In this document: one piece after another, positions 27,568 to 28,740 of the stretch
Layout: every line of letters begins with the position of its first letter
Position numbering within the stretch: position 1 is the stretch's first letter
Virus record (IMG/VR): IMGVR_UViG_2645727867_000003
Length of the DNA stretch: 53,137 bases
Reading direction: 5' to 3' (one strand)
DNA from: a virus
Taxonomy: Duplodnaviria; Heunggongvirae; Uroviricota; Caudoviricetes
The notes under the pieces: generated by a model
Told to the model about the DNA's origin: nothing
Seen by the model: only the letters and a program-made list of their open reading frames with translations
The model's database searches: none
Program-made: the position numbers and the translations under genes

Positions 27568-28200
27568 ATGCTTATCTATCCAGCGGCAGACCTCCGTTTA
27601 CAGGGACGCAGAGCACAACCATGGGATAAAACAACCACTCATAAATATCGTCCCGGTCAATATTATGACTTTCGTAAACACCCGGAACTGATCGAGACAC
27701 ACCTTGAGGATTTTGTTGAATATTCAGACAGACAAGCGATTCAGACCTTTTTTTCTTTTGTTAAGTGGATCAACAGCAATTCATCTGCATTCGAGAGCAC
27801 GGACTGCATGTTTTCAGGAACACCAAAGGTTGATGAATACGCCCCGGTATTTGGTTGCACCCATGCGTCATCTGGCCGCTTCGAATTTTTGTTTCGCGAT
27901 ACGAAAATAAACCAAAATGAGCGAGCTGTCGGATGGGTACTTAACAAACTATCGCTCTACCTTCAGAAAGAACGGCCCGATTTTTGTAAAGGAACCTTTG
28001 GCATCGTTCCCCTCATGACGGAATATACCGACTCCGGCGGTAACGAGTTCACCGGTTATCGTATTTGTGTCTATTTCGATGCTTACGGGAATGGAACAGA
28101 GGATACCTGGACTTCTCTCAACATCATGTTTGATGGCCTCATGAAAGCCACCAAAAGAATGAGCAATGAAACAATCACTGGCGAGATGCGTCCCCTTTAA
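27568..28200 (+). CDS. hypothetical protein (210 aa), convergent with and overlapping the neighbouring gene
   Basis: SD AGGAG 7 nt before the ATG at 27568. No recognisable motifs. The 3' 252 nt overlap the minus-strand ORF 27949..28740. Confidence 0.4.
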   Translation: MLIYPAADLRLQGRRAQPWDKTTTHKYRPGQYYDFRKHPELIETHLEDFVEYSDRQAIQTFFSFVKWINSNSSAFESTDCMFSGTPKVDEYAPVFGCTHASSGRFEFLFRDTKINQNERAVGWVLNKLSLYLQKERPDFCKGTFGIVPLMTEYTDSGGNEFTGYRICVYFDAYGNGTEDTWTSLNIMFDGLMKATKRMSNETITGEMRPL

Positions 28201-28740
28201 AAAATTATCCAGAATCTCACTATTTGCAGAGCGCTCTCTGTTTTTTTGAATACGGAAACACTCTGCGAGATTTCTGCTCATCACTTTCCGGCAATAATCG
28301 TCAAACGCAGCAAACTGCTCATCGCGGCGTTTTTTTTCACCTTCGGAAGGGATCTGCACCGACAGTTTTTTATTCAGTTCAACGACGCTGTTCTCCAGTT
28401 TTTCAATGCGTGATTCGATATCATCTTTTTCTGACTGTATCGTGTTATATGCATTGTTAATTTGTATGGTATACCGCTCTTCTGAACAGAGGCGCTTTTC
28501 CGGCAACGGTTCGTTCCCTTCACATAACCCGGCAGCAATATCCATGAAAAACTGCTTCGCCTTCTTTTTCGCCTCAGCTTCGTAAAACTCCAGCGGGGCA
28601 CCTTCAACACGATCAAGATCAATCACCACATTTGGCAACAACAGTGACGTATACCCACCAGTTTCCAGCGCCACAGTAACAGTAATCTTATCCGGGTAAA
28701 TATTTATCCCTTTAACAACCAGTTCGTATTGTTTATTCAT
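27949..28740 (-). CDS. hypothetical protein (263 aa) inserted between holin and endolysin
   Basis: ATG 4 nt after the holin stop with SD GGAGAG inside the holin 3' end. Central coiled-coil stretch. No recognisable catalytic motif. Confidence 0.55.
   Translation of the reverse strand: MNKQYELVVKGINIYPDKITVTVALETGGYTSLLLPNVVIDLDRVEGAPLEFYEAEAKKKAKQFFMDIAAGLCEGNEPLPEKRLCSEERYTIQINNAYNTIQSEKDDIESRIEKLENSVVELNKKLSVQIPSEGEKKRRDEQFAAFDDYCRKVMSRNLAECFRIQKNRERSANSEILDNFLKGTHLASDCFIAHSFGGFHEAIKHDVERSPGILCSIPVSIEIDTNTITGELVTAGVGIFRHEGNDAKGSFTKIGPFFLKVER

Follow-up and report, generated by a model that had tools for sequence, protein, structure and literature searches.

An antisense gene pair, very probably dual-coding, in the lysis cassette of an E. 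coli prophage

Introduction

Selected dual coding on opposite strands is rare in bacteria and phages, where long antisense protein-coding overlaps are still disputed and annotation pipelines discard the candidates. Here we describe such an overlap in the lysis cassette of a tailed virus (Caudoviricetes; IMG/VR record IMGVR_UViG_2645727867_000003), represented by a stretch of 53,137 nucleotides (nt) that we refer to as the window. Between S, the gene for an S21-type pinholin, and R, the gene for a putative signal-anchor-release (SAR) endolysin, both on the minus strand, lies a minus-strand open reading frame (ORF) of 263 amino acids (aa) and, convergent with it on the plus strand, a gene of 210 aa, denoted A; the C-terminal part of the 263-aa ORF, denoted B, runs antisense to the last third of A. 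We are highly confident of this anatomy and of the dual coding; translation of both frames is predicted from the sequences. The first-pass annotation of the locus, all of whose coordinates for this region were reproduced, had allowed for two possibilities, namely, that both ORFs are real, forming a long antisense overlap, or that one of them is a non-coding shadow.

Anatomy of the overlap

The proposed coupling of the 263-aa ORF to the holin gene holds: its ATG (28738-28740) comes 4 nt past the holin stop codon (28744-28746), the spacer being 3 nt, and a Shine-Dalgarno (SD) sequence, GGGGAGAG, is located within the 3' end of the holin gene. The convergent 210-aa ORF likewise has the good SD ascribed to it (AGGAG at 27556-27560), and the overlap, estimated previously at about 250 nt, measures 252 nt (27949-28200). 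The distance from the start of A to the start of the overlap is 381 nt (27949-27568), that is, 3 x 127, so both ORFs use the same triplets, sense and antisense codons being reverse complements of one another. The CTA codon of Leu128, an invariant residue of A, is the stop codon of B. In such an in-register antisense frame, stops need only a TTA, CTA or TCA codon on the sense strand, and long shadow ORFs are commonest there, so the shadow question needed testing. The features of the locus are listed in Table 1.

Table 1. Features of the lysis region of the window
Feature	Coordinates	Strand	Basis or remark
Gene A, 210 aa, uncharacterised family	27568..28200	+	AGGAG at 27556-27560, 8 nt upstream
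263-aa ORF, in-frame fusion of DUF1327, coiled-coil/linker and domain B	27949..28740	-	Sequence and profile comparisons
DUF1327/YdfR domain, residues 1-96	28453..28740	-	PF07041, E 7.5e-34
Coiled-coil and linker, residues 97-173	28222..28452	-	Canonical phrog_2091 proteins (183 positions) end here
Domain B, residues 174-263 and stop, own ATG absent here	27949..28221	-	Aligns with free-standing B genes of 89-107 aa
Probable dual-coding stretch, 252 nt	27949..28200		A codons 128-210 and A stop; last 83 B codons and B stop
Segment differing from PhiR12_1 (A/B cassette)	27514..28290		Replaced relative to PhiR12_1; GC 0.41-0.47
Spacer upstream of R, common to phages with other plus-strand cargo	27438..27513		Contains ATATCAGGAT and CCYGGRTATGTTGA
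Terminator-like hairpin (28226-28241) and T-run, 26 nt past A stop	28226..28248	+	Pattern match only
S21-type class II holin (pinholin), 71 aa	28744..28959	-	PF04971, E 7.2e-33; phrog_9876 holin
SD GGGGAGAG of the 263-aa ORF, within last holin codons	28747..28754	-	Direct sequence reading
SAR-type endolysin (R21-type), 177 aa	26904..27437	-	PF00959, E 7.3e-25
Rz	25949..26422	-	ORF; RefSeq label 'lysis protein'
Rz1, embedded in Rz, other frame of the same strand	25990..26196	-	..LVVSAC.. lipobox

Gene A

Sequence comparison and structural modelling indicate that A is a real protein, the overlapped third included. Its homologues are full-length and ungapped (210-219 aa, 50-65% identity), with start and stop fixed across many contexts; the family comprises 251 clusters (at 50% identity), with matches spanning the whole length; and the AlphaFold2 model obtained with the family alignment as input has a predicted local distance difference test score (pLDDT) of 95.7 and a predicted template modelling score (pTM) of 0.92. 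The overlapped part (residues 129-210) lies within the confidently predicted fold, and the C-terminal strands and helix at 142-204 belong to it. Searches of PDB sequences with A, B and the 263-aa ORF produced nothing significant, a search of genome contigs for relatives of A yielded nothing usable, and three remote A proteins matched nothing when scanned against viral contigs; the deep alignment of A (A2) is too diverse to serve for locus scans.

Remote homologues of A also exist outside phages. On a GC-rich metagenome contig (L076, 2853-4615), such a homologue overlaps the stop codon of an Exo_endo_phos (nuclease/phosphatase) gene by 4 nt, and on an integrase-bearing element of Acidobacteria (L075, 825-6049), another is followed by an AAA_14/DUF4143 ATPase gene. 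In a P22-like prophage of Salmonella (L008, 9618-11257), A is located between the Q antiterminator and holin genes, approximately 3 kb from a Kiwa defence system (KwaA, KwaB) that belongs to the same accessory region.

The B frame in relatives

We retrieved the DNA of A homologues from other contexts and checked whether the in-register antisense frame is open. In ten diverged lineages, with A identity of 38-73% among themselves and to the window, this frame is open from A codon 121-128 to past the A stop. The closer lineages have an invariant Leu codon (CTA or TTA) at the boundary, which forms the antisense stop, and an ATG 16-18 nt beyond the A stop that opens a B ORF of 89-107 aa. In nearly all lineages checked, a GGAG-type SD precedes this ATG, although the surrounding sequence, beyond the end of A, has otherwise diverged. 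Free-standing B thus has a start codon and a ribosome-binding site of its own, whereas in the window, B has no ATG and relies on the DUF1327 start. Both ORFs are intact and conserved in length across diverged homologues, and even A homologues at 38-39% identity still have B. Gene callers sometimes pick B up (for instance, in Enterobacter and Yersinia), although one such peptide from Enterobacter bears the name 'DUF1327 domain-containing', a label evidently carried over from the fused ORF of E. coli. On a metagenome contig (L055), a free-standing B of 104 aa follows 4 nt past the S21 holin gene, without a DUF1327 gene; this direct junction was found in no complete E. coli genome.

Tests of selection on the B frame

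Across the ten lineages, the in-register antisense frame contains no stops in the 817 codons opposite A codons 129 to the end, versus 69 in 1270 codons (5.4%) opposite A codons 1-127; in the other four alternative frames, stops account for 3.7-9.7% in both regions of A. The codons TTA, CTA and TCA make up 25-60% of the Leu and Ser codons in A 1-127 and none of the 10-15 such codons in A 129-210. The chance of an open frame, estimated for each lineage by Monte-Carlo simulation with synonymous codons drawn from the gene's own usage, ranged from <0.0001 to 0.19. At the boundary, the GC content of third codon positions (GC3) rises from 0.32-0.41 to 0.50-0.63 in the enterobacterial lineages that carry B, with no rise in two Salmonella lineages in which B is interrupted (L005) or altered (L008).

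The controls for these tests were the rest of A, as an internal reference, and the lineages that lack B. In pairwise comparisons, the codons for identical A residues are themselves identical in 49-68% of cases within the overlap versus 30-51% outside, and this excess is absent in pairs that include L005. The amino acid identity of B is above the expectation from the protein conservation of A (mean z 3.1, maximum 6.5), which was calculated with synonymous codons chosen freely and according to the codon usage of each region; applied to the antisense frame opposite the N-terminal part of A, this test gave a z of 0.22. Close pairs differ, at the first, second and third codon positions of A, by 0.038, 0.035 and 0.164 in the non-overlapping part and by 0.055, 0.009 and 0.091 within the overlap (chi-square p 4.6e-5), which is the pattern to be expected if the second position is shared by the two frames and the wobble position of A is the first position of B.

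The embedded frame thus appears to be under selection beyond that imposed by its mother gene, and the combined tests, in our assessment, exclude chance and composition as the source of the open B frame. The synonymous-constraint analysis of homologues that the first-pass annotation had proposed shows suppressed synonymous change in A in the overlap only. Conservation of a single frame in homologous prophages, which would have contradicted the notion of two real genes, was not observed, since both frames are kept there, and the notion of a long antisense overlap of real genes is borne out. The shadow option founders, for B, on the stop-free frame and, for A, on the 251 clusters of its family and the confident fold.

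The 263-aa ORF

Contrary to the initial impression that neither protein has recognisable motifs, the 263-aa ORF begins with a DUF1327/YdfR domain (PF07041, 116.3 bits versus a gathering cut-off of 25) that is homologous to the proteins of phages BP-4795, 86 and PhiR12_1; YdfR is the member of the family in the Qin prophage. The profile of phrog_2091 (183 positions) covers residues 1-168, and the 169-aa protein of PhiR12_1 and the 198-aa protein of L053 end at a point equivalent to the end of the coiled-coil. Canonical DUF1327 proteins are approximately 105-183 aa long, and the 263-aa ORF departs from them in both length and end: its C-terminal 90 or so residues match no DUF1327 member, and no match for B was returned by PHROGs, NCBIfam or PADLOC. 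A relationship between B and the DUF1327 domain itself was considered and rejected (hhalign probability 2.8%). Residues 174-263, which include the stretches ..SPGILCSIPVSIEIDTNTITGELVTAGVGIFR.. and ..IGPFFLK.., are 33-53% identical to free-standing B proteins and 76-86% identical to two 104-aa forms.

The junction between the two parts can be located by comparison. Canonical DUF1327-coiled-coil proteins terminate in ..DYCIEVTRRNFVKAFEESKSLQ followed by the stop codon, and in L053, the coiled-coil protein is followed by 98 nt and then by a separate B of 104 aa. The window has ..DYCRKVMSRNLAECFRIQKNRERSANSEILDNFLKG.. at this point, with neither the stop codon of the upstream gene nor the start codon of B, so the two form one continuous frame, presumably as the result of a small deletion. 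The linker of the fusion, ..QKNRERSA.., is encoded on the opposite strand of the terminator-like hairpin of A. Of 25 E. coli-type copies examined, the 263/264-aa fusion is present in 17 and a form of 161 aa in four, and the remaining four are broken; A is intact in 22 of the 25. In the 161-aa form (L004 2550-3035, i.e. Stx2_499; L016, L028 and L032), 16 unrelated residues replace the DUF1327 domain; this form is still coupled to the holin and keeps the coiled-coil and B in frame.

The first-pass annotation had considered the separation of pinholin and endolysin surprising, on the grounds that the two are normally adjacent. An intervening gene is in fact commonplace: a DUF1327 gene is located between S and R also in BP-4795 (114 aa), PhiR12_1 (169 aa) and phage 86 (268 aa), and DUF1327 DNA is present in 3162 of the 5426 complete E. 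coli genomes. The DUF1327 domain (28453-28740) also shows sub-threshold matches to the PepSY domains of YpeB (Pfam, E 0.0077; PDB 5boi, E 0.026). Because YpeB is a spore-germination protein that partners a cell-wall lytic enzyme, these matches give a very slight indication that the endolysin encoded nearby might be a target of DUF1327.

Distribution, mobility and origin

The module is found in 132 of the 5426 complete E. coli genomes, in all cases with at least 99% identity, and in eight deposited records of Shiga toxin (Stx)-converting prophages among 50,697 phage records, in none of which A is annotated. The 263-aa ORF of the window is 100% identical to that of E. coli 94-3024, for which RefSeq annotates no more than the initial 83 codons, labelled as a DUF1327 pseudogene 'missing C-terminus', and leaves the plus strand empty; the PGAP annotation likewise omits A in most of the 132 carrier genomes (e.g. 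NZ_CP009106.2). Thus, the pipelines mislead at this locus, turning one partner into a pseudogene and omitting the other. A full-text literature search returned nothing on the A/B overlap, and a mention of DUF1327 is unrelated to judge by the title and abstract of its source. A 199-aa antisense prophage-like protein of Salmonella found by proteomics (PMC7593589) was rejected as a candidate, its peptides being absent from both A and B.

The A/B pair occurs in genomes of Escherichia, Enterobacter and Yersinia and on unassigned IMG/VR phage contigs, in diverse contexts: between tail genes I and J of lambda-like prophages, before or after the tape-measure gene, upstream of a holin of a different type, and directly behind the S21 holin with no DUF1327 gene. 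Relative to the syntenic phage PhiR12_1, the pair lies in a replaced segment of deviant composition (GC 0.41-0.47, versus 0.53-0.57 for holin and endolysin), as is typical of the accessory genes known as morons. By these comparisons, the pair is a mobile cassette that moves as a unit between the tail and lysis operons of unrelated phages. In 23 phage loci, long ORFs flank it on both sides, predominantly on the strand of B (the few exceptions resemble shadow ORFs), such that B is co-directional with the late operon and A is opposed to it. The partners can also part: a Salmonella prophage remnant near sodC has an intact A and a broken B, and in L053, L070 and L066, B is intact and A is deleted, frameshifted, truncated or hit by an insertion sequence.

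With regard to origin, the A homologues of L075 and L076, at approximately 30% identity, contain stops in the B frame and lack the GC3 shift, with L073 being ambiguous; A is therefore the older gene, and B was probably overprinted on it, within a clade of enterobacterial temperate phages. The embedded gene is, accordingly, younger than its mother gene.

The S-R interval as a whole is a hot-spot for cargo (27438-28300 in the window; 1539-1910 in L012; 1539-1981 in L013). These phages share a 76-nt spacer upstream of R, but the plus-strand gene next to it varies from phage to phage, being A in the window, a DUF1823 gene in PhiR12_1 and, in phage 86, an ORF of 104 aa. All these cargo genes converge on a DUF1327 gene, whose C-terminus differs in each case, and the DUF1823 gene of PhiR12_1 overlaps its DUF1327 gene by 53 nt.

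Flanking signals and the rest of the lysis cassette

Two short non-coding blocks, ATATCAGGAT and CCYGGRTATGTTGA (27445-27490), show conservation upstream of A whether the copy is in a tail operon or in a lysis cassette; they were compared in L010, L011, L038 and L063 (alignment A6). The same blocks are also found in phages whose S-R cargo differs from A, and they may represent a shared promoter/operator or a recombination site, although no -10 element is evident beside them. In tail-operon copies, a terminator-like hairpin with a T-run is located on the late (B) strand, directly before the ATG of tail gene J (L039 5873-5890, L047 5855-5870, L050 5843-5859), with stems that differ in sequence and retain the pairing. 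Since this B-strand hairpin lies at the far end of the cassette, B could also have a transcript of its own ending there.

The remainder of the lysis cassette resembles that of phage 21. The pinholin scores 112.8 bits against PF04971 (cut-off 26), which identifies it as a class II holin of the S21 type, and the endolysin scores 88 bits against PF00959, with an N-terminus, MNTKIKYGLSAAVLALIAAGAPAP, that, as judged by eye, is rich in Gly and Ala and hydrophobic; downstream of the endolysin, Rz contains the embedded gene for the Rz1 lipoprotein. Two small overlapping ORFs lie between endolysin and Rz (26419-26780), where RefSeq has two small hypothetical genes and where related phages have an antirepressor (ant) gene. 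An Rfam scan of 26800-29200 detected no RNA family.

Interpretation

The explanation of the entire locus that we favour as probable, although by no means assured, is a mobile dual-coding A/B cassette, with B fused in the window, whose two products are cargo and phase-opposed partner. Under this explanation, A would be a cargo gene with transcription of its own, probably expressed in the lysogen and outside the late programme, as suggested by its own SD, the terminator-like hairpin, the low GC content and the conserved upstream blocks. B would be translated only from a transcript running with the strong, Q-dependent late operon; in the window, an S-ORF263-R-Rz message would give rise to the DUF1327-B fusion, translationally coupled to the pinholin. 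The late transcript would be complementary to the entire A mRNA and would run head-on with transcription of A, so expression of A and B would fall in opposite phases, with A produced in the lysogen and B produced late, and B would neutralise or take over from A once its own prophage goes lytic. Because the two share codons, effector and partner would be inseparable during recombination. This functional model, with A as cargo and B as its late counteracting partner, is tentative, and we are more inclined to doubt it than to accept it. A bolder version, in which the pair is a portable genetic switch composed of an old lysogen effector, A, and a late, de novo antisense protein, B, with late transcription silencing A at the RNA level and B neutralising it at the protein level, is a speculation that we rate as rather unlikely.

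Several observations weigh against the favoured explanation. Scans revealed no sigma-70 consensus promoter upstream of A in the window and in three tail-operon copies, and that A is made in the lysogen is therefore conjecture. Comparison with Pfam, PHROGs, NCBIfam, PADLOC, PDB and BFVD gave no informative match for A. AlphaFold2 applied to B alone gave a pLDDT of 47 (11-sequence alignment); given that overprinted proteins are often poorly ordered, this is weak evidence against B. B appears to be less constrained than A, because within the overlap, the third codon position of A is still more variable than the first, and between L055 and L053, which represent the sub-lineage of the window, changes are non-synonymous for B in 9 codons and for A in 3, so constraint on the fused B domain may be weak. 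The B-containing ORF is broken in 4 of the 25 E. coli copies and A in 3. Finally, A-only states (L005, L008) and B-only states (L053, L066, L070) both occur, and therefore neither gene strictly needs the other.

Some of these points would fit a different scenario, in which B is a real gene elsewhere and the fusion in the window is an inactivating accident, whereby the DUF1327 gene, deprived of its stop codon, continues into a B that is decaying; the 263-aa ORF would then be a pseudogene, and only A would matter here. The PGAP label of a DUF1327 pseudogene 'missing C-terminus', the absence of B's own ATG, the surplus of B over A changes among the closest relatives and the frameshifts in some E. 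coli copies are all compatible with it, but the frame is intact in 21 of the 25 E. coli-type copies and has been kept in two architectures, the 263-aa one and the 161-aa one, in which DUF1327 was lost in frame and the coupling to the holin was not. Moreover, DUF1327 proteins vary at the C-terminus in general (114, 169 and 268 aa), so a C-terminal B domain fits the modular habit of the family, and we consider such an accident a minority prospect, albeit one to be taken seriously. That B is nowhere a gene, its frame being open by chance or owing to the composition of A, is very improbable: this could appeal to the register, in which long shadow ORFs are commonest, and to the lack of a predicted fold for B, but the loss of stops is specific to one frame and one region, the ATG and SD of B are conserved outside A, B is intact where A has been destroyed, and synonymous suppression and the excess of B identity are seen in the overlap only, mainly in B-carrying lineages and against an internal control. 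The converse, that A is the shadow and the minus-strand ORF the sole gene, as RefSeq and the deposited phage records have it by annotating that ORF alone, has a practically negligible probability in view of the full-length conservation of A with fixed start and stop in many contexts, its 251 family clusters and pLDDT of 95.7, and the many stops in the minus strand opposite its codons 1-127.

If both genes are real, their relationship could still be incidental, B being a late phage protein unrelated to A, for example, an assembly or lysis accessory, and the overlap a matter of genome compaction after the cargo had landed. B is indeed always oriented as the late genes are and sits close behind one of them, and variants with A only and with B only occur; yet all B homologues found are antisense to A or to a remnant of A, the pair travels together between the tail and lysis operons of unrelated phages, and B has varying neighbours (I, tape measure, holin, DUF1327), with no constant late partner evident among them. 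We regard this possibility as unlikely. Still less likely, in our estimate, is that the pair belongs to a known class of toxin-antitoxin, abortive-infection or anti-phage defence modules, defence and abortive infection having been brought up in the first-pass annotation. Low-GC cargo at a site where temperate phages carry accessory genes, the position of A in L008 between Q and the lysis genes and approximately 3 kb from Kiwa, and the remote A homologue on an integrase-bearing element are suggestive in this respect. However, PADLOC gave no match below E 0.007 for A, B and 110 members of the A family, Pfam and NCBIfam detected no toxin or antitoxin domain, and A is retained in two lineages that lack B, which speaks against a lethal toxin dependent on B. 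Regulation of lysis timing, the other role suggested in the first-pass annotation, is a possibility that the present results neither favour nor disfavour.

Relation to known systems and significance

Rz/Rz1 of lambdoid phages is an accepted case of dual coding in which one gene is wholly embedded in the other and the products are known partners. Like Rz/Rz1, A/B would yield two proteins from one stretch of a lysis cassette; unlike Rz and Rz1, which occupy different frames of the same strand, A and B are encoded on opposite strands with their codons in register. Morons, such as lambda bor and lom, are independently transcribed cargo genes in late operons, and the A/B cassette resembles them in being present or absent in syntenic phages, in its low GC content, its own SD and terminator-like hairpin, and its location between late genes; it differs from the classical moron, a single transcription unit, in having a second gene on the opposite strand that reads with the host operon, and A has no identifiable promoter. 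The pair matches no known defence or toxin-antitoxin family among those tested (PADLOC, Pfam, NCBIfam). The 263-aa ORF shares with other DUF1327/YdfR proteins (ORF47 of BP-4795, gp05 of phage 86) the N-terminal 96 residues, the place after an S21-type holin and the tight coupling, but whereas the canonical proteins end after the domain or the coiled-coil, it runs on for 90 residues on the antisense strand of A.

Antisense embedded genes that arose by overprinting have been described in E. coli O157:H7 (PMC9927249, PMC5960689), and two long antisense pairs are known in Pseudomonas aeruginosa (PMC8850804); antisense overlapping genes have been reviewed (PMC7457138). As in these published cases, the younger ORF lies antisense within an older mother gene and, in its free-standing form, has its own start and SD, and the embedded gene shows faster evolution than its mother gene and a poor structure prediction. 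The published overlaps come mainly from ribosome profiling in one strain and show limited conservation (PMC9927249, PMC5960689, PMC8850804), whereas A/B has strong comparative support across genera. A/B differs from them also in being a mobile cassette with a fixed polarity relative to the phage late operon, and in that the embedded gene of the window is fused to the DUF1327 gene upstream.

The locus therefore offers a case built on comparative evidence, namely, an open frame, a conserved start and ribosome-binding site, and synonymous suppression confined to the overlap, along with natural controls in the form of the rest of A and the lineages that have lost B. The fixed polarity, with the old gene set against the late operon and the new gene reading with it, suggests a regulatory logic. 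If the switch described above were true, it would be one in which a protein-coding antisense partner is locked to its target by sharing codons with it. The cassette is present in Shiga-toxin-converting prophages, where the lysis region governs the release of the toxin.

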